A DNA stretch of 64,000 bases from a virus (Duplodnaviria > Heunggongvirae > Uroviricota > Caudoviricetes), in the IMG/VR virus record IMGVR_UViG_3300037418_002962, positions 154,650 through 218,649 of that record; one strand, given 5' to 3'. The notes under the pieces were generated by a model, which was not told the DNA's origin, made no database searches, and saw only the letters and a program-made list of their open reading frames with translations. Positions 1,845-43,627 of the stretch are shown piece after piece. How positions within the stretch are numbered: position 1 is the stretch's first letter; each line of letters begins with the position of its first letter. A program made the position numbers and the translations under genes.

Positions 1845-2183
1845 TTAATAACAATTCCTATCATTAAAATATTCTTCGTTTGCATCTTTTCGGATTTTAT
1901 TTCCTTGTTTAACACCCCATTCTTCATAAGATAAATCTTCTTCGGATAAATCTCTAAATGCATACATAGAATTCATTTTTACTTGTTCATTATATGCTTT
2001 AATAATTTCTTCAACAGCTTCAAATTCTAATTTCATGAATTCAAATGGAGTTAAAGGAACTCTCTGCATCTGAGCTTGTTCTAGAGTTGCATAGTATTGG
2101 GAGAATTTTTGTCTAGCTTTATTTAAAGGACTTCTATTATCTCTTAATACTTCGTTCAAATGCTTTTGATCTCGGAATTCCAT
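1845..2183 (-). CDS. hypothetical protein
   Basis: 112-aa ORF abutting neighbours. Confidence 0.55.
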   Translation of the reverse strand: MEFRDQKHLNEVLRDNRSPLNKARQKFSQYYATLEQAQMQRVPLTPFEFMKLEFEAVEEIIKAYNEQVKMNSMYAFRDLSEEDLSYEEWGVKQGNKIRKDANEEYFNDRNCY

Positions 2184-2773
2184 TAAATATAATCCTCGAT
2201 TAATTCCATAAATTCTTCTTCCGAGATAACCTTTACACCTTTGGTTCTGGCATCACCAGCTTTCTTTGAATCAATATTGGAGCCATTAACCAAGAAATCA
2301 GTATTTCCACTAACTGTACTTGCTACATGCATACCAATAGATTCACAGATATCCTTAGCTTCTGTTCTGGTCATTCTCTCCATTTTTCCGGTAAATACAA
2401 TAGTCTTACCTCCTAATGGAGTATCATACATGTCTTCTCTTTGATATAGATCGTTGGTCTTTCCTCCAAGAACTTCCATAACTCCATCAGTATATTTCCA
2501 TCCCCACCAAGTTCCTCTATTATCCCCTTCATGGTCTGAGAGAATTACTTTACCATTTGCTTTATACTTGGTTAGAATTTCTTGTAGTTTTTCATCATAC
2601 ATAAATTGTCCCATCCATTCCATATGGTCAGGATTGAACTGAAATCTTCCCTCATAAAGAATTTCTTCTTTCTCATACCAATATTCTTCTGCCATTGGTA
2701 ATGCCCAAATTTCATCAATTGCTTCTATTGGAACTTCTAATGTATTTACGTCTAAACTAATTTGCCAACTCAT
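2183..2773 (-). CDS. protein with C-terminal BRCT domain (LigA-type)
   Basis: GKTIVFTGKMERMTRTEAKDICESIGMHVASTVSGNTDFLVNG...KA...GVKVISEEEF matches the LigA BRCT pattern; probable start MSWQ at 2773 after an AGGAG RBS. Confidence 0.8.
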   Translation of the reverse strand: MSWQISLDVNTLEVPIEAIDEIWALPMAEEYWYEKEEILYEGRFQFNPDHMEWMGQFMYDEKLQEILTKYKANGKVILSDHEGDNRGTWWGWKYTDGVMEVLGGKTNDLYQREDMYDTPLGGKTIVFTGKMERMTRTEAKDICESIGMHVASTVSGNTDFLVNGSNIDSKKAGDARTKGVKVISEEEFMELIEDYI

Positions 2774-2803
2774 AATATAAATTCTCCTTTTCAAATAAAA
2801 TAA

Positions 2804-2811
2804 TATAAATA
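2804..2811 (+). promoter_or_regulatory. T4-type late promoter
   Basis: TATAAATA just upstream of RNA leader copy 1. Confidence 0.7.
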
Positions 2812-2818
2812 ATAAAAT

Positions 2819-2877
2819 AGGAAGTAATCAAGCATCTGGTAAATGACTTGAAACAGTGGAGGTTCTGCTGTCCTTCC
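2819..2877 (+). ncRNA. candidate structured RNA leader, copy 1
   Basis: AGGAAG-TAA-[TCAAG..CTTGA]-AACA...TGCTGT-CCTTCC, shared with 30067 and 42721. Confidence 0.65.
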
Positions 2878-2903
2878 AATAACATTATTTAGGAGGACTG
2901 TCA

Positions 2904-3815
2904 ATGTATACTTACGAAGATTTACGTAATAATTCAGAAATACTTAAAAATTATAAATCTAGAGAAGAAGTTCCTTTGCGTTGTTGTGAATGCAATATTC
3001 AATATTTTAAAACTAAACATGATATTCAAGGAAAAATCAAAAATTTTTATAGAAATTTTTGTTCAAAACAATGTTCTAATAAAAAATTTATGAAAGAAAA
3101 TTTAATACAAAAAGTTGAATGTGAAAACTGTAAAATTATTTTTGAAAAGCCTACAAGATTTATAATAGAGAATAGATTAAATTACTGCTCTGCAAAATGT
3201 ACTGGAGAATCACAAAAGACTAGTAAAATTATTATCTGTAGTTATTGTAAAAAGAAAACAGAAAAGAAAATTTCTCAATTAAATAGCAACAAAAATAATT
3301 TTTGTTCTAGAGATTGTTCTGGAAAATTTAAAAGTATAAACCAAGATATATTAATAACATGTAATTATTGCGAAACCCTATTTATTAGGAAAAAGTACAA
3401 AATGAAAAACAACGATAAAAATTATTGCTCTAAATTTTGTAGAAACCAAGTAAGAATAACTAATAAAAGACCAAAACTTGAAATTTATTTGGAAGAACAA
3501 CTTTCAATATTGTATCCAAATTTAGAAATTATTTATAATGATAGAAAAATTCTTGATGGCTTAGAACTTGATATTTTTATTCCTTCTTTAAGATTGGCTT
3601 TTGAATTAAATGGTCCTACTCATTATTTACCAATCTATGGTAACAAACAATTATTAAAAGTTAAAAACAACGATAAAATAAAAATTGATAAATGTCAAGA
3701 AAGACAAATTAGATTGTTTGTATTAAATACATCGAAACAAAATCTTGTTAATAATATAACATCAAAACCATTTTTAGATCTTGTATTTAATACAATTAAC
3801 CTACAGTATAGCTAA
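2904..3815 (+). CDS. Cys-repeat (CxxC..FCSxxC) + Vsr/DUF559-like PD-(D/E)xK endonuclease, putative free-standing homing endonuclease, copy 1
   Basis: Several CxxC/YCSxxC zinc-binding repeats followed by ELDIFIPSLRLAFELNGPTHY; opposite strand to neighbours; paralogs at 30168, 33831 and 42818. Confidence 0.75.
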   Translation: MYTYEDLRNNSEILKNYKSREEVPLRCCECNIQYFKTKHDIQGKIKNFYRNFCSKQCSNKKFMKENLIQKVECENCKIIFEKPTRFIIENRLNYCSAKCTGESQKTSKIIICSYCKKKTEKKISQLNSNKNNFCSRDCSGKFKSINQDILITCNYCETLFIRKKYKMKNNDKNYCSKFCRNQVRITNKRPKLEIYLEEQLSILYPNLEIIYNDRKILDGLELDIFIPSLRLAFELNGPTHYLPIYGNKQLLKVKNNDKIKIDKCQERQIRLFVLNTSKQNLVNNITSKPFLDLVFNTINLQYS

Positions 3816-4806
3816 ACATTGCTTTTTCTTCTACTGGAAGTTTCGTATCCGAATCTTTAAAACTATTTAAAAGTTGGGTCCATTCCCTGCTTCTATCATT
3901 CCAATTATGAACAATATCACAATAAAATTTTTGGATTTTTAATTTTTCTTGAATATATGGATTCCAATAATTTTCAATTGTCTGATCAAGAATGGAATAA
4001 AATAATTTGGCGTGTTCTTCTTTAGTCTCAATGTATTGATACATTAATGATAATGATCCAGAAGTTTCAGGAAGCGCCGCCAAATTAGGATGTACACATG
4101 CTAATCCAGCACTTTGGGCCTCGATTAATACGAGACAACTTGATTCCTGCCATGTATTTGGATAAGCAAGAATATGGTAATTTTTCAGTTCTTCTCTTAA
4201 TTCTTCATTTGTTGCAGTTTCATGTCTGAAAATATTTGGGTTATTATCCATTTTTTCAAACAATTCCTTAAAGGGCTGGTCCCTATCTTCCCATCCATAT
4301 AGCTTAAATGAAGCAAATGTATGAAGTTCAATATTATCATATTTCTCGGTTAGCTTTTCAAATACTGGAACAAGAATATCCAATCCTCTATGGGGAGTAC
4401 TCCAATATGCCAGTCTAATTTTATCTGTTGGCTTTTCATGATCTTCAATTGGAACAATTGCATTCTTCATTACAATTGTTCTTGAAGGAGGAATCTGATA
4501 TTTTTCAATATATCTTTGAGCTTGCCAATTTGAAACGAAAACTAGACGATGGAATTTTTTCCATCCGCCATTTGCAAGATGTGCCGATTCTGGATCTTCA
4601 GGTAAATCGTTAAGAATAAGAATTCTTACCTTATTTGGATTTAATTCTCTTACTCTTGATGAAATAATTTGAAATTTTTCTAGTAATTCTCTAGGCACTG
4701 AACCGTCATAAATCCTGGAAAGCATAAGCTCGCTTCCACCCATTGCCTCTTTGTTCTGATCGTTTCTTTCCATTAAATCGTAATTATTCATTATTCTCCT
4801 TTTCAA
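3796..4806 (-). CDS. glycosyltransferase (GT-B fold, GT4-like)
   Basis: AMGGSELM, STPHRGLDIL, YPNTWQESSCLVLIEAQSAG motifs. Confidence 0.85.
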   Translation of the reverse strand: MKRRIMNNYDLMERNDQNKEAMGGSELMLSRIYDGSVPRELLEKFQIISSRVRELNPNKVRILILNDLPEDPESAHLANGGWKKFHRLVFVSNWQAQRYIEKYQIPPSRTIVMKNAIVPIEDHEKPTDKIRLAYWSTPHRGLDILVPVFEKLTEKYDNIELHTFASFKLYGWEDRDQPFKELFEKMDNNPNIFRHETATNEELREELKNYHILAYPNTWQESSCLVLIEAQSAGLACVHPNLAALPETSGSLSLMYQYIETKEEHAKLFYSILDQTIENYWNPYIQEKLKIQKFYCDIVHNWNDRSREWTQLLNSFKDSDTKLPVEEKAMFSYTVG

Positions 4807-29065: not shown

Positions 29066-29791
29066 CTACCCTTGGGACGAGCCATTTAGTACCTTCAATG
29101 CATCATTAGTTATTTGCTTTCTTAATGCTAATCCGTAAGTTCCGCCATTAATATGTCTAGTGATACTTTCAATATCACCATTATCTGCAAAAGCATTTAA
29201 AGAATACTTATACCAAAACCATCCAGCAACGTCAACTGCTCCCGAATAATTCTCCAAATAATTAATTACATCATTAACAGATTTATTGAGATATTTGCCA
29301 TAGGCTTCATAATTATCTTTAAAGGTTAACTGAATACAGCCTCTTCCTCTAAATTTCCATCCATCACCAGATGCTTCATCGCCATTTCCATAGCGATTTG
29401 CATATACACGATTAGCGATTTTTTGGGGTTGGTTGGCATAATTATATTCTTCACCAGGAAGAAAATGAGTAGGGAATGTACTTCTTAATCCTTTTGCTGA
29501 ATAGTTTAGATTTTCTTCCATTACTTGAAAAAACTCTGATTCTTCTCCTACTTGCCCAAGAAAATAAGAAATTCTTTTTGGAGTATTGATACCATATTTA
29601 ATAAAGGTATTATTTAAAGGTCCAATGAAATTATAAAGAATTCCTGATTTCGTATTTGGAAAAATTCTAGTAAGTTGGTCTAAAGAAATCAATGAAACCG
29701 AAGAAGTCTCTTTAATAATTGGGGTAGTACTTTGAACATTACTATCAGACATGAAAACACTTTTAAACCAGTTAATAATATTATCAAACAT
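29066..29791 (-). CDS. glycoside hydrolase family 19 endolysin
   Basis: FLGQVGEES, ENLNYS, ANRVYANRYGNG, FRGRGCIQLT.K.NY, ITRHINGG. Confidence 0.9.
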   Translation of the reverse strand: MFDNIINWFKSVFMSDSNVQSTTPIIKETSSVSLISLDQLTRIFPNTKSGILYNFIGPLNNTFIKYGINTPKRISYFLGQVGEESEFFQVMEENLNYSAKGLRSTFPTHFLPGEEYNYANQPQKIANRVYANRYGNGDEASGDGWKFRGRGCIQLTFKDNYEAYGKYLNKSVNDVINYLENYSGAVDVAGWFWYKYSLNAFADNGDIESITRHINGGTYGLALRKQITNDALKVLNGSSQG

Positions 29792-30032
29792 CAGTTACCA
29801 GTTCAGAAGAATTCTTTTTCTTTGGATTCCCCCAGATAGAATTAGTTCTTACTCTGATGAACTTTTTATTTCTTTCCATTGTATTTGGATTTGCAATAGT
29901 AATCCAAGGATTCTTGCCCTTCTTCCAGGCATCAAAGATAAACATATGTCTATCTGCATCTGAGCGTTCCCTACGAATCATCTTTGTAACTTTCCACGAA
30001 ACGCTATCTCTTTCGCCTTTTGAAACTTTCAT
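29784..30032 (-). CDS. conserved T4-like small basic protein
   Basis: SKGER...AWKKGKNP.ITIANPN..E.NK.FIRV...WG.P. Confidence 0.65.
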   Translation of the reverse strand: MKVSKGERDSVSWKVTKMIRRERSDADRHMFIFDAWKKGKNPWITIANPNTMERNKKFIRVRTNSIWGNPKKKNSSELVTDV

Positions 30033-30054: not shown

Positions 30055-30062
30055 TATAAATA
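30055..30062 (+). promoter_or_regulatory. T4-type late promoter
   Basis: TATAAATA upstream of RNA leader copy 2. Confidence 0.7.
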
Positions 30063-30066
30063 AAAC

Positions 30067-30134
30067 AGGAAGTAATTGAGAAGTCGGAAGCTATCTCAAA
30101 ACACTCACGAGGAAACTTGTGTTGCTGTCCTTCC
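30067..30134 (+). ncRNA. candidate structured RNA leader, copy 2
   Basis: AGGAAG-TAA-[TTGAGA..TCTCAA]-AACA-[CACGAG GAAA CTTGTG]-TGCTGT-CCTTCC. Confidence 0.65.
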
Positions 30135-30167
30135 ATAAAATATATTTATGAGAGGAAATATAACCAT

Positions 30168-30854
30168 ATGAATACTTATTTGTCAATATCTAAAAATCCA
30201 GAAATATTATATAACTTTAAAGCAATGGAATATATTAATTTAACATGTAATAATTGCTTTAAGTTCTATTCGAAAACCAAACATGATATAATAAAAGCTC
30301 TTAAAAATAATTCTAAATATAATTATTGTTCTAAATTTTGTTTCCGAACTTCAAATAATAGAATTAAGAAGAAGCTAAGTGTTGTTTGTGAAAATTGTGG
30401 TATAAAATTTCAAAAAACAAATACTAATATATTAAGAACAAAAAAACATTTTCATAATAAAAAATGTTGGAGCGAATATTTTAATAAAATAAATGGTAAA
30501 AATAAATCTAGATCTAAATTAGAATTCTGGATAGAAAAACAATTAAATGATTTATATCCAGAGTTAATTATAGAATATAACTCACGAAAAATTATAAAAG
30601 GTGAATTGGATATTTTTATACCTTCTCTCAATTTAGCTTTTGAATTAAACTGTCCAACTCATTATAAATTAATTTATAAAGGTCAAAATCTTAAAAGAAC
30701 TCAGGATAAAGATAAACTAAAAATAATAGAATGTGAAAATAAAAATATTACCTTGTTTCCTATAGATATTTCTGTTCCAGATCATTTTGATCCAAATAAA
30801 TCAAAGAAATTTTTAGATTTTATAACAGAAAAAATTACCAGTACTCCCTTATAA
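30168..30854 (+). CDS. Cys-repeat + Vsr-like endonuclease, copy 2
   Basis: Start MNTY at 30168 by alignment with paralogs; ELDIFIPSLNLAFELNCPTHY (C in place of the conserved G). Confidence 0.7.
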   Translation: MNTYLSISKNPEILYNFKAMEYINLTCNNCFKFYSKTKHDIIKALKNNSKYNYCSKFCFRTSNNRIKKKLSVVCENCGIKFQKTNTNILRTKKHFHNKKCWSEYFNKINGKNKSRSKLEFWIEKQLNDLYPELIIEYNSRKIIKGELDIFIPSLNLAFELNCPTHYKLIYKGQNLKRTQDKDKLKIIECENKNITLFPIDISVPDHFDPNKSKKFLDFITEKITSTPL

Positions 30855-33632: not shown

Positions 33633-33830
33633 CTTTCATCCTGTTAGGTCTTAGGTGATTCGCTTTATGTAGCCGATTGTACTACCCCAAAATGGGTAGG
33701 TCAATATGAAATGTCATATAAATTTCATTATTTTTGTGATTTCAACGTTTGCTGAAATCTATTGATTTAATGAAATTTTGGGGATGGCTGATCTGCCGAG
33801 ATTTGAAAGCTAAGATTCATAAATACTGGT

Positions 33831-34571
33831 ATGCATACGTACCAGGAAATTTTACAAACAAAAACAATCTTAGAATCTTACAAATCAAGAGAATCAGTAC
33901 CTTTGGTTTGTAACCACTGTCATTCTGTTTATTACAAACCAAAAAACAGGATTATGGATGCCCTGAGGCATAACCTCACAAAAAATTTTTGTACAAAACA
34001 ATGTTCCAGTAAATTTAAAATTGTAGGTAAATATATGGAATGTTTGAACTGTCAAAAAGAAATCTTCAAATGTGACTATGAAACAAAGAAAACAAAAAGA
34101 AGTTTTTGCTCAAAATCCTGTGCAGGAACGTATAATAACAAACACAAAACTCATGGAACTAGAAGATCAAAATTAGAAAAATGGCTAGAGACAGAACTAA
34201 AAAGGTTATATCCAAACCTTGAAATCCATTTCAATCGTAAAGATGCGATAGACTCTGAACTAGACATTTATATTCCTTCTCTTAAGTTAGCATTTGAACT
34301 TAATGGCATCTTTCATTACGAACCGATTTATGGTAAAGAAAAATTAGAGAAAATTAGAAATAACGATAACAATAAATTTATGCTGTGCCAACTTAAAAAT
34401 ATTTCTTTATGTATTATAGATACATCAGGACAAAAATATTTCAAAGAGACAACCTCTCAAAAATATCTTGATATAATAAAAAATATAATAAAAATCAGGC
34501 ACTTAGCGGGTCATAGAGGACTCGAACCTCTGACCTATCGCTTAGAAGGCGATTGCTCTAAATCCTACTGA
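33831..34571 (+). CDS. Cys-repeat + Vsr-like endonuclease, copy 4 (no leader; C-terminus runs antisense through tRNA-Arg)
   Basis: MHTYQE..YKSRESVPLVCNHC; RSKLEKWLE; ELDIYIPSLKLAFELNGIFHY. Confidence 0.75.
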   Translation: MHTYQEILQTKTILESYKSRESVPLVCNHCHSVYYKPKNRIMDALRHNLTKNFCTKQCSSKFKIVGKYMECLNCQKEIFKCDYETKKTKRSFCSKSCAGTYNNKHKTHGTRRSKLEKWLETELKRLYPNLEIHFNRKDAIDSELDIYIPSLKLAFELNGIFHYEPIYGKEKLEKIRNNDNNKFMLCQLKNISLCIIDTSGQKYFKETTSQKYLDIIKNIIKIRHLAGHRGLEPLTYRLEGDCSKSY

Positions 34572-34582
34572 GCTAATGACCC
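34507..34582 (-). tRNA. tRNA-Arg(UCU), no encoded CCA
   Basis: GGGTCAT/ATGACCC acceptor, ATCGC-CTTCTAA-GCGAT anticodon arm, GGTTCGAGTCC T arm; followed by CTA. Confidence 0.9.
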
Positions 34583-39550: not shown

Positions 39551-39623
39551 TCGCTTGTAGCTCAACTGGTAGAGCACTCGGCTGTTAACCGGGTGGTTGT
39601 AGGTTCGAATCCTACCGGGCGAG
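39551..39623 (+). tRNA. tRNA-Asn(GUU), no encoded CCA
   Basis: TCGCTTG/CGGGCGA acceptor, CTCGG-CTGTTAA-CCGGG, GTAGGTTCGAATCCTAC; followed by CTA. Confidence 0.9.
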
Positions 39624-39640
39624 CTAAGAACAGCCTTTAT

Positions 39641-39712
39641 TTGAGGATCGTCTAATTGGTAGGACCTGAGATTCTGGTTCTCATTATCTAGGTTCGAGTC
39701 CTAGTCCTCAAT
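39641..39712 (+). tRNA. tRNA-Gln(CUG), no encoded CCA
   Basis: TTGAGGA/TCCTCAA acceptor, TGAGA-TTCTGGT-TCTCA, CTAGGTTCGAGTCCTAG; followed by CTA. Confidence 0.85.
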
Positions 39713-42454: not shown

Positions 42455-42688
42455 TTATTTGAACTCAATAAAAATCCTATTTGGACCTAACAAAAACCAA
42501 TCCTTATCATCTGCACTGTATTCAACACGCTCATGTTTAATTTCATAATGCGTAATGGAAGGATCTTCATTCTGATATCGTTCCAATTCATGTTTAAAAT
42601 ATGCTTTAGTTTCTTCTTCAATTTCCTTCTCAGAAAATCCCATAACTCTGAAATCATCCCAAAGGGTTGTTATATCATTTTTAATCAT
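42455..42688 (-). CDS. hypothetical protein
   Basis: 77-aa ORF. Confidence 0.5.
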   Translation of the reverse strand: MIKNDITTLWDDFRVMGFSEKEIEEETKAYFKHELERYQNEDPSITHYEIKHERVEYSADDKDWFLLGPNRIFIEFK

Positions 42689-42707: not shown

Positions 42708-42715
42708 TATAAATA
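42708..42715 (+). promoter_or_regulatory. T4-type late promoter
   Basis: TATAAATA upstream of leader copy 3; perfect inverted copy at 42797-42804. Confidence 0.7.
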
Positions 42716-42720
42716 GTTAA

Positions 42721-42785
42721 AGGAAGTAATTTATGGAGGTACGAACTCACATAAAAACAAAAGAGGAAACTCTGCTGTCCTTCCT
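42721..42785 (+). ncRNA. candidate structured RNA leader, copy 3
   Basis: AGGAAG-TAA-[TTTATG..CATAAA]-AACA-[GAG GAAA CTC]-TGCTGT-CCTTCCT. Confidence 0.65.
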
Positions 42786-42817
42786 ATAACATAAACTATT
42801 TATAGAGGAAAGACAAT

Positions 42818-43627
42818 ATGCACACTTACGAAATATTAAAAAATAATCCAGAATTATTGAATGGCTATAAATCGAGAGAAAAATTACCAATGATTTGTAG
42901 CCATTGCAATAAAGAATATTTTAAGCTTAAATATTCTATTAATGATGCAATTAAACAAGGAATAGATAAAAATTTCTGTTCAAGAAGTTGTCATAAGATT
43001 AGCATATCAACAAAAGAACAAACTACTTGTGGAAATTGTTTTAAAAACATATTTGTTAAAAAATCTTATATACTGAAACGAAACATCTTTTTTTGTTCTA
43101 AACATTGTTCTGCATTTTACTATGGCAAAATAATTTCAACGAAAATAAAAATAAAATGTACTAAATGTAGTAAAATATTTGAGAGATGTGAATCTGTTAT
43201 TTCAAAGCAAGAGAATAATTTTTGCTCTGTTAATTGTTTTCATAAGACTCATTTTGGTAGTAGGTCTAAATTAGAAAAATGGCTTGAAGAAAAATTAACT
43301 ATTTTATATCCAGACTTAAAAATAAAATATAATAATCGTCAAATAATTTCATATGAGCTAGATATCTATATACCTTCTCTAAAATTAGCATTTGAATTGA
43401 ACGGTCCAACTCACTACAAGAAAATTTATAAGAATAGAAGTTTGGAAGAAATACAAAGAAGAGATAAAATTAAAGTTGAAGAATGTCACAAAAAGGAGAT
43501 TGAGTTGCATGTAATAGACGTTAGTGCTCAAAAAGTAGTCAATGATATAACATCCATCCCGTTTTTATCATTCATTATAGAAAAGATAAATCTATCATAC
43601 ATTCAACAAAAAAGGCTACTAAATTAA
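42818..43627 (+). CDS. Cys-repeat + Vsr-like endonuclease, copy 3
   Basis: MHTYE..YKSREKLPMICSHC; RSKLEKWLE; ELDIYIPSLKLAFELNGPTHY; overlaps the 3' end of gp44. Confidence 0.75.
   Translation: MHTYEILKNNPELLNGYKSREKLPMICSHCNKEYFKLKYSINDAIKQGIDKNFCSRSCHKISISTKEQTTCGNCFKNIFVKKSYILKRNIFFCSKHCSAFYYGKIISTKIKIKCTKCSKIFERCESVISKQENNFCSVNCFHKTHFGSRSKLEKWLEEKLTILYPDLKIKYNNRQIISYELDIYIPSLKLAFELNGPTHYKKIYKNRSLEEIQRRDKIKVEECHKKEIELHVIDVSAQKVVNDITSIPFLSFIIEKINLSYIQQKRLLN

Follow-up and report, generated by a model that had tools for sequence, protein, structure and literature searches.

In a 64,000-nt stretch of phage DNA (the window; positions 154,650 to 218,649 of IMG/VR virus record IMGVR_UViG_3300037418_002962), three paralogous genes of putative homing endonucleases are each preceded by a short RNA leader that folds into a three-way junction. 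The three repeats are true copies of a previously undescribed three-armed RNA leader, and this leader is a real and strongly supported RNA family, new to Rfam and to the literature searched. Among its homologs, the junction is linked to selfish nucleases in general and not to a single nuclease family. We consider it rather probable that the leader and its flanks form a cassette, portable among the free-standing homing-endonuclease genes of many uncultured T4-like phages, that controls expression by combining a temporal gate with an antisense mechanism. Judging from the sequences, translational control of the adjacent nuclease is the most likely role of the cassette, and an antisense brake is probably part of it. 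The arrangement is best read as the known T4 scheme of a late promoter pairing with the ribosome-binding site (RBS) in a hairpin, extended by a conserved three-way junction and an RBS-matched hairpin.

On inspection of the sequence, the three loci (2819-2878, 30067-30135, and 42721-42785) read as earlier described from the letters alone (the sequence-only reading), and all three, on the plus strand, have the layout GGAAG-UAA-P2-AA-P3-CUGUC-CUUCC, where P1 is the closing helix (coordinates in Table 1). The pattern GGAAGTAA-N25-55-CTGTCCTTCC was found three times in the window, always on the plus strand, and never in 100 shuffles; across the whole 243,684-bp virus record it is confined to these 3 sites. 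RNAfold gave the three-way junction as the minimum-energy or centroid fold in all three copies. In each of them, P2 has two stems, of 5 to 6 bp and of 3 bp, separated by a bulged A on the 3' side, and a loop of 5 to 7 nt; its letters vary from copy to copy, while the pairing is kept. P3 ends in GAAA in copies 2 and 3, and copy 2 contains G-U pairs. Sequence and folding thus bear out the shared layout, the differing yet paired P2, and the P3 details on which the sequence-only reading was built. Two of its statements need correction. The AACA and UGCUGU strings that it assigned to the junction are present but partly paired, as a conserved C-G pair closes P3, which leaves AA as J2/3 and CUGUC as J3/1. 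The invariance that it ascribed to P1 and the junction bases holds for P1 within this genome but not in the homologs, where P1 covaries.

The distance from the T4-type late promoter box TATAAATA to AGGAAG is 7, 4, and 5 nt in copies 1, 2, and 3, and that from the end of the element to the ATG (at 2904, 30168, and 42818) is 26, 33, and 33 nt, in agreement with the 4 to 7 and 26 to 33 nt given before. T4 late transcripts start at a set spacing from the promoter, and the 7-nt distance in copy 1 accordingly places the predicted late start 1 to 3 nt before P1. This part of the sequence-only reading, with a leader that begins where a T4-type late transcript is predicted to start, is supported.

Homologs were collected by an exact-pattern scan of IMG/VR followed by a covariance model (R1), and by two further pattern scans with different free parts followed by model searches (R1 and R2). 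The exact-pattern scan gave 38 matches, mostly chance ones including two tRNAs, with 7 true junctions that differed in P2 and P3. R1 then revealed extra copies in the same contigs with an altered P1 (AGAGAG/CUCUCU or AGAGG/CCUCU), and the R1 and R2 searches yielded 59 + 28 matches in IMG/VR phage contigs, corresponding to about 60 distinct sequences. In the resulting alignment (A5), 94.4% of the cells form standard pairs, versus 66.3% after shuffling; 14 of the 15 pairs vary on both sides, and with the partner slid by one column the pairing is 44 to 49%. P1 itself is exchanged from GGAAG/CUUCC to GAGAG/CUCUC, GAAGG/CCUUC, and others, with GC and AU pairs swapped without mispairs. All three helices covary among the homologs, while some 10 junction nucleotides are almost invariant across the roughly 60 diverged copies. 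The model search that the sequence-only reading had suggested as a check therefore favored a genuine RNA family. In a comparison with Rfam 15 (4227 models, among them int-alpA, hammerhead, twister, pistol, hatchet, and riboswitches; gathering and permissive thresholds, both strands), only tRNAs passed in the window. The best subthreshold scores on the three copies came from unrelated families (14 to 25 bits, versus thresholds of 40 to 94), and no relevant family, including int-alpA and all ribozyme classes, was hit at 11 homologous loci. A description of the element was likewise not found in the literature searched.

The genes behind the homologous leaders belong to several GIY-YIG kinds, to a LEM-3-GIY-YIG type with NUMOD3, to an HNH type with repeated N-terminal modules, and to an EndoVII-like type; others encode a small zinc-finger protein, a decayed remnant of 11 codons, and, in one case, TnpB. 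The TnpB-like gene (L089:5190-6284, plus strand), which carries OrfB_IS605 and a Cas12f1-like TNB domain and matches the transposase family phrog_506, is preceded by a window-type leader at L089:5105-5166 (plus strand); a GIY-YIG gene with a leader of its own is found 1.1 kb away on the other strand. The remnant is found on the 204-kb contig of locus L021, where an intact leader (L051:1501-1567, minus strand) with promoter, box, and Shine-Dalgarno sequence (SD) is followed by an 11-codon open reading frame (ORF) only; by its sequence, the cassette seems to have outlived an endonuclease gene that decayed or was deleted.

The junction is framed by two boxes. A late promoter TATAAATA stands immediately upstream of the nuclease ORF in all three window copies, and in every window-type copy the RBS is directly preceded by the exact reverse complement of the late promoter, CUAUUUAUA, or by a close variant of it. 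Compared with TATTTATA, this second box matches at 8 of 8 positions in 18 of 28 copies and at 7 of 8 in a further 9 (0.4% and 6.9% in shuffled sequences), with TATTTA invariant, although it had been left out of the search pattern that found the copies. Its spacing from the junction equals that of the forward promoter, and it is kept whether the upstream gene is divergent or co-directional. In promoter-inclusive RNAs, the minimum-energy fold contains an outer helix between promoter and box in all three window copies, in which the SD is paired, and in most homologs; RNAs beginning at the late start are predicted to be without it. Since the pairing often extends to CUCC:GGAG (in longer copy 1 RNAs, the box pairs with 2804-2811 and the CUCC upstream of it), the RBS would be buried in RNAs that include the promoter. 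Cognate flanks pair better than noncognate ones (-11.66 versus -9.74 kcal/mol; 3 of 20,000 permutations), and in locus L046 the promoter variant AATAAATA is matched by the box TATTTATT. According to these fold predictions, the three-way junction is the conserved apical part of a promoter/anti-promoter outer helix. On the minus strand, the box is also a late-promoter sequence that faces the promoter of the gene, with 8, 7, and 6 of the 8 positions agreeing in copies 3, 2, and 1, respectively, a match that fits the outer-helix pairing as well.

A second relationship connects the junction with the gene behind it. The SD and the 3 to 5 nt after it recur in the 5' arm and loop of P3, as in GGAGCUAU, GGAGUAAG, UAGGAUGGA, GAGGUGAA, and GUGAGGUA. 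In the window, the strings shared by P3 and the RBS region are GGAGG in copy 1 (equal to the SD), GAGGAAA in copy 2 (7 nt), and AGAGGAAA in copy 3 (8 nt). The longest common string amounted to 7.07 nt between P3 and its own RBS region, versus 4.40 nt with the RBS regions of other copies, a difference reached in 0 of 20,000 permutations. Ten control comparisons were made among window-type copies (P2 or P3, as copy or complement, against the RBS region and the flanks); eight were clearly null and two were marginal, at about 0.05 uncorrected, namely, the P2 copy and the P3 copy against the upstream flank. Being a direct repeat of the RBS, P3 does not pair with it within one RNA, whereas an RNA made from the facing promoter would carry the complement of P3, which can; the predicted antisense complement thus matches the translation-initiation region of the gene. 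Two other interpretations of P3 were rejected: a leader peptide (CUG-UCC read as codons after the SD-like P3) has neither a canonical start nor a consistent stop position, and an intramolecular anti-SD formed by the 3' arm of P3 comes on inspection to about 3 bp at most. In copy 1, the segment from the SD to the ATG (2891-2903, GGAGGACUGUCAAUG) again holds the junction string CUGUC, and the likeness of the SD region to P3 plus J3/1 (GGAGG-UUCUG-CUGUC) reaches past the SD, with a 4-nt gap.

Some copies at first appeared to be solo and turned out to neighbor a homing-endonuclease gene that lies on their other side and is encoded by the opposite strand. In this sister class, 9 of 10 neighboring genes tested match GIY-YIG, EndoVII, or homing-endonuclease families, and the RNA read in the sense of the gene corresponds to the window-type junction in reverse complement, with the order 5' GGAAG-GAC, a hairpin between AG and UU, a second hairpin, and UUA-CUUCC. 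Of 24 cases, 21 fold better on the gene-sense strand. In most copies, 7 to 12 nt of the gene-proximal loop are complementary to the RBS of the same gene (6.9 for own versus 5.0 for cross comparisons; 0 of 20,000 permutations), and neither a facing promoter nor a conserved box is present in this class. The opposing promoter is therefore kept only where the anti-RBS lies on the opposite strand, which is the main argument for a real antisense RNA. One sister-class copy (L059:1501-1560, minus strand) has an 8-bp direct repeat, TTAAGTTA, on both flanks, which could be a chance occurrence or a trace of insertion.

The cassette is ordered as a late promoter TATAAATA, a junction RNA of about 60 nt at or near the 5' end of the transcript, the reverse-complement box, the RBS, and the nuclease gene. 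Following the logic of I-TevI and segB in T4, the nuclease would be translated only from the late-promoter transcript, which is without the 5' arm of the outer helix. The facing promoter would give rise to a short antisense RNA, folded as the mirror image of the junction, whose hairpin loop, complementary to the nuclease RBS, would damp translation. In the sister class, the reversed junction would place the anti-RBS loop in the nuclease mRNA itself, where it would act in cis. A further version of this proposal, which we put forward only tentatively, is that of a two-stranded, self-addressed brake, one strand of which would always have hairpin loops matched to the RBS of the adjoining nuclease gene. 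It would act in cis as an RBS-occluding pseudoknot where the gene is on that strand and in trans as a late antisense RNA where, as in the window, the gene is on the other, and it would co-evolve letter by letter with the nuclease. The conserved junction core may then be a platform for some host or phage factor.

Cis-antisense RNAs control selfish genes in IS10 (RNA-OUT/RNA-IN) and in hok/sok, and Millard et al. reportedly described, in 2010, an antisense RNA over a homing endonuclease gene of cyanophage S-PM2. The cassette resembles such systems in that a putative promoter faces the promoter of the gene in the 5' leader and in that the antisense RNA, as predicted, is a structured one in which a hairpin loop complements the RBS region. 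It differs from them in that the RBS, which the anti-RBS loop would target, lies beyond the predicted antisense promoter and hence outside the overlap, in that the cassette RNA is a three-way junction, and in that a cis form exists in the sister class.

Several observations weigh against a gate combined with an antisense RNA. The outer-helix pairing alone explains the box equally well, and within the window the minus-strand promoter is perfect only in copy 3. The energies predicted for the antisense:RBS duplexes fail to tell the three window copies apart, GAGGAAA being common to copies 2 and 3. The evidence on the strand is mixed, P3 of window-type copies being more stable in the gene-sense RNA in 26 cases versus 9, with P2 neutral. 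The conserved junction bases (UAA, AA, and CUGUC) and the bulged A of P2 are not explained by the mechanism. The upstream neighbors of all three window copies lie on the opposite strand, so that no obvious sense read-through, in the form of a longer early or middle transcript, is at hand for the outer helix. Finally, a blastn search with two copies found only chance matches among 50,697 phage records, and model R2 found nothing in five cultured relatives (Melnitz, S-SRM01, S-SKS1, Mosig, and RN05-S).

A T4-style temporal gate alone, in which the outer helix hides the RBS, the junction serves as an apical spacer or 5' stabilizer, and the minus-strand promoter is an unused by-product of the palindrome, is in our view unlikely. 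In its favor, most copies are predicted to form the outer helix, whose covariation goes beyond the shared 8-mer, P1 begins at the predicted +1 or +2, and the arrangement fits that documented for I-TevI, I-TevII, I-TevIII, segB, and Aeh1 mobE, in which a late promoter within a hairpin provides translational control (PMC2988022). The upstream gene is divergent in 20 of 36 copies and co-directional in 12 of 36, and in the latter read-through is expected; no co-directional upstream gene is present in the window. What a gate alone leaves unexplained is that P3 tracks its own RBS region beyond the SD core, that the junction bases are invariant, and that in the sister class the junction persists while the box is gone and an anti-RBS loop takes its place. 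The same comparison shows how far the cassette follows T4 endonuclease control: TATAAATA lies directly upstream, the promoter region is predicted to pair with the RBS, and a late transcript would free it. Unlike in T4, the helix is capped by a conserved and covarying three-way junction of about 60 nt with invariant junction bases, its 3' arm is an exact reverse complement of the promoter and so gives a facing promoter sequence, a hairpin copies the RBS region of the gene, one cassette spans many nuclease families, and the window genes are inverted relative to their neighbors, with sense read-through not evident. The sequence-only reading, which held that the leader differs in kind from the RBS-sequestering hairpins of T4, was therefore only half right, as an outer helix that occludes the RBS is predicted in longer transcripts of the cassette.

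It is improbable that the cassette is mainly a mobile promoter or recombination module acting at the DNA level, with RNA folding secondary. Being common to unrelated nuclease genes, it must move by recombination; inverted repeats frame it, a decayed gene is found behind an intact copy (L051), and promoter(early)-stem-loop elements (PeSLs), in which variable ORFs are flanked by an early promoter and a simple terminator stem-loop, mediate DNA-level shuffling in T4-type genomes (PMC2839356, PMC4122927). The cassette resembles PeSLs as a short, repeated promoter-plus-structure module beside variable genes, with many copies per genome, but it has a late promoter, a three-way junction, and RBS-matched loops, and no U-tract terminator. 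Moreover, the compensatory changes and G-U pairs indicate selection on the RNA fold, the copies in one genome share only about 20 nt of identical sequence, a poor substrate for recombination, and the rules of RBS copy and complement have no rationale at the DNA level.

For a ligand-sensing riboswitch or a self-cleaving ribozyme, with the invariant UAA, AA, and CUGUC as its pocket or active site, the chances appear slight. Such a role would suit about 10 junction nucleotides that are nearly invariant while the helices covary, a size of about 60 nt, typical of small aptamers, and a P1 whose purine-rich 5' and pyrimidine-rich 3' strands resemble an SD/anti-SD pair. Nevertheless, no Rfam riboswitch or ribozyme matched on either strand, the junction lengths (3, 2, and 5) do not fit a hammerhead, no terminator, conserved expression platform, or conserved switching helix was found, and both orientations relative to the regulated gene occur, which a strand-specific pocket would not tolerate. 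The suggestion of a ribozyme or riboswitch in the sequence-only reading thus found nothing in its support. The int-alpA motif (RF02996) is another small branched RNA in phage DNA; its model gave no score on the window copies at E values up to 10 and none on the 11 homologous loci at E values up to 1, so the family is not int-alpA by Rfam's own model.

Least credible is a dedicated RNA partner of the Vsr-like nuclease in a new nuclease-plus-RNA mobile system, the idea favored by the sequence-only reading, for although 3 of 4 window paralogs carry the leader directly upstream and the zinc-finger-like repeats of the proteins could bind nucleic acid, the same RNA precedes at least five unrelated nuclease families, its variable parts follow the RBS and not the protein, its orientation is reversed in the sister class, and the fourth paralog has no leader. 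A nuclease-specific scaffold, guide, or operator therefore fails, the homologs not being linked to this one family.

The three ORFs behind the leaders are paralogs, 45 to 46% identical. An AlphaFold (AF2) model of the C-terminal 120 residues, taken from paralog 3, had a pLDDT (predicted local distance difference test) of 87.5, and its best fold matches were I-Bth0305I (template modeling score [TM], 0.59/0.69), Vsr (0.64/0.58), and the nuclease domains of PvuRts1I/AbaSI; the matches to 3r3p, 1vsr, 4oky, and 4par had TM values of 0.5 to 0.7 but weak Foldseek E values (0.003 to 0.2). The C-terminal domain contains the motif ELD...FELNGPTHY...D, of which the ELD...THY...D residues are kept in four window paralogs. 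By fold and motif, the window nuclease resembles I-Bth0305I and other Vsr-like (EDxHD-type) enzymes and is a putative homing endonuclease of this type; unlike I-Bth0305I, the window proteins carry N-terminal Cys-repeat modules. Fold comparison alone named the nuclease domain, which searches of Pfam, NCBIfam, and PDB sequences did not. The PHROGs label of the family is homing or HNH endonuclease, and blastn touches a 'Hef-like homing endonuclease' of Bacillus phages AR9 and PBS1. The fourth paralog, which has no junction leader, has CATAAATA at 33818-33825, 5 nt before its ATG, and its start codon lies in a predicted hairpin at about 33826-33847; the 3' end of its frame crosses a tRNA gene (34507-34582, minus strand). 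Outside the window, a 464-aa open frame contains a weaker match (E value, 3e-10) to the C-terminal nuclease domain (G000:C1:143289-143540, minus strand).

The phage is an aquatic myovirus, T4-like but distant, with a GC content of 31 to 38%; at the clamp loader, it shares about 46% identity with Methylophilales phage Melnitz, Pelagibacter phage Mosig, and several Synechococcus phages. In a comparison aimed at empty sites, the clamp-loader neighbor gave one distant relative. Among 33 relatives of the glycosyltransferase-like neighbor (3796-4806), none had the nuclease, the other neighbor, or the element, and thus no true empty allele was found. The late promoter TATAAATA occurs 17 times in the whole window (10.3 expected), 12 times on the minus strand, where most of the ORFs examined lie. 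Three of the 5 plus-strand boxes are those of the nuclease leaders, and one (39527) stands before a tRNA pair (39551-39712). A minus-strand box at 3530-3537, inside nuclease ORF 1 and antisense to it, may serve the downstream minus-strand gene as an embedded late promoter of the kind described for seg and mob genes of T4. If the minus-strand box of copy 1 fires, the 5' leader of the divergent gene next to it would hold the antisense junction.

Table 1. Coordinates of the leader cassettes, nuclease genes, and neighboring genes in the window
Feature	Position	Strand	Remarks
Copy 1, late promoter box TATAAATA	2804-2811	+	T4 type; exact match
Copy 1, three-way junction	2820-2877	+	Minimum free energy -16.8 kcal/mol; model R1 63.5 bits, E 2e-15
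Copy 1, parts of junction	P1 2820-2824/2873-2877; J1/2 UAA 2825-2827; P2 2828-2851; J2/3 AA 2852-2853; P3 2854-2867; J3/1 CUGUC 2868-2872		
Copy 1, anti-promoter box TATTTAGG	2886-2893	+	Minus-strand reading CCTAAATA, 6/8
Copy 1, SD AGGAGG	2891-2896	+	Overlaps anti-promoter box
Copy 2, late promoter box TATAAATA	30055-30062	+	
Copy 2, three-way junction	30068-30134	+	-18.5 kcal/mol; model R1 63.3 bits
Copy 2, parts of junction	P1 30068-30072/30130-30134; UAA 30073-30075; P2 30076-30099; AA 30100-30101; P3 30102-30124; CUGUC 30125-30129		RBS copy GAGGAAA in P3, 30109-30115
Copy 2, anti-promoter box TATTTATG	30143-30150	+	Minus-strand reading CATAAATA, 7/8
Copy 2, SD GAGAGGAAA	30150-30158	+	
Copy 3, late promoter box TATAAATA	42708-42715	+	
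Copy 3, three-way junction	42722-42784	+	-18.2 kcal/mol, z -3.1; model R1 60.8 bits
Copy 3, parts of junction	P1 42722-42726/42780-42784; UAA 42727-42729; P2 42730-42755; AA 42756-42757; P3 42758-42774; CUGUC 42775-42779		RBS copy AGAGGAAA in P3, 42762-42769
Copy 3, anti-promoter box TATTTATA	42797-42804	+	Minus-strand reading is a perfect TATAAATA, also in an independent box listing
Copy 3, SD AGAGGAAA	42804-42811	+	
Nuclease paralog 1	2904-3815	+	303 aa; N-terminal Cys-repeat part and Vsr-like EDxHD-type C-terminal nuclease domain
Nuclease paralog 2	30168-30854	+	228 aa from the ATG at 30168
Nuclease paralog 3	42818-43627	+	269 aa
Fourth paralog	33831-34571	+	246-aa frame; no junction leader upstream (33700-33830)
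Divergent neighbor of copy 1	2183-2794	-	
Divergent neighbor of copy 2	29784-30032	-	82 aa
Divergent neighbor of copy 3	42455-42688	-	77 aa

Free-standing homing endonucleases are among the commonest selfish elements of large phages, and the curbing of their potentially toxic expression, known for a few T4 genes, was an open area in a 2010 review (PMC2988022). One RNA cassette shared by GIY-YIG, HNH, EndoVII-like, Vsr-like, and TnpB genes would show that regulation is modular and either travels with these genes or is captured by them. The letter-for-letter match between hairpin and RBS offers a directly testable mechanism, and the element is a clean new family that Rfam could take up, as well as a marker by which endonuclease cassettes and late promoters can be annotated in metagenomic phage genomes. 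If the tentative proposal of a self-addressed brake is true, the leader would be a portable RNA regulator that adapts to whatever nuclease adjoins it.

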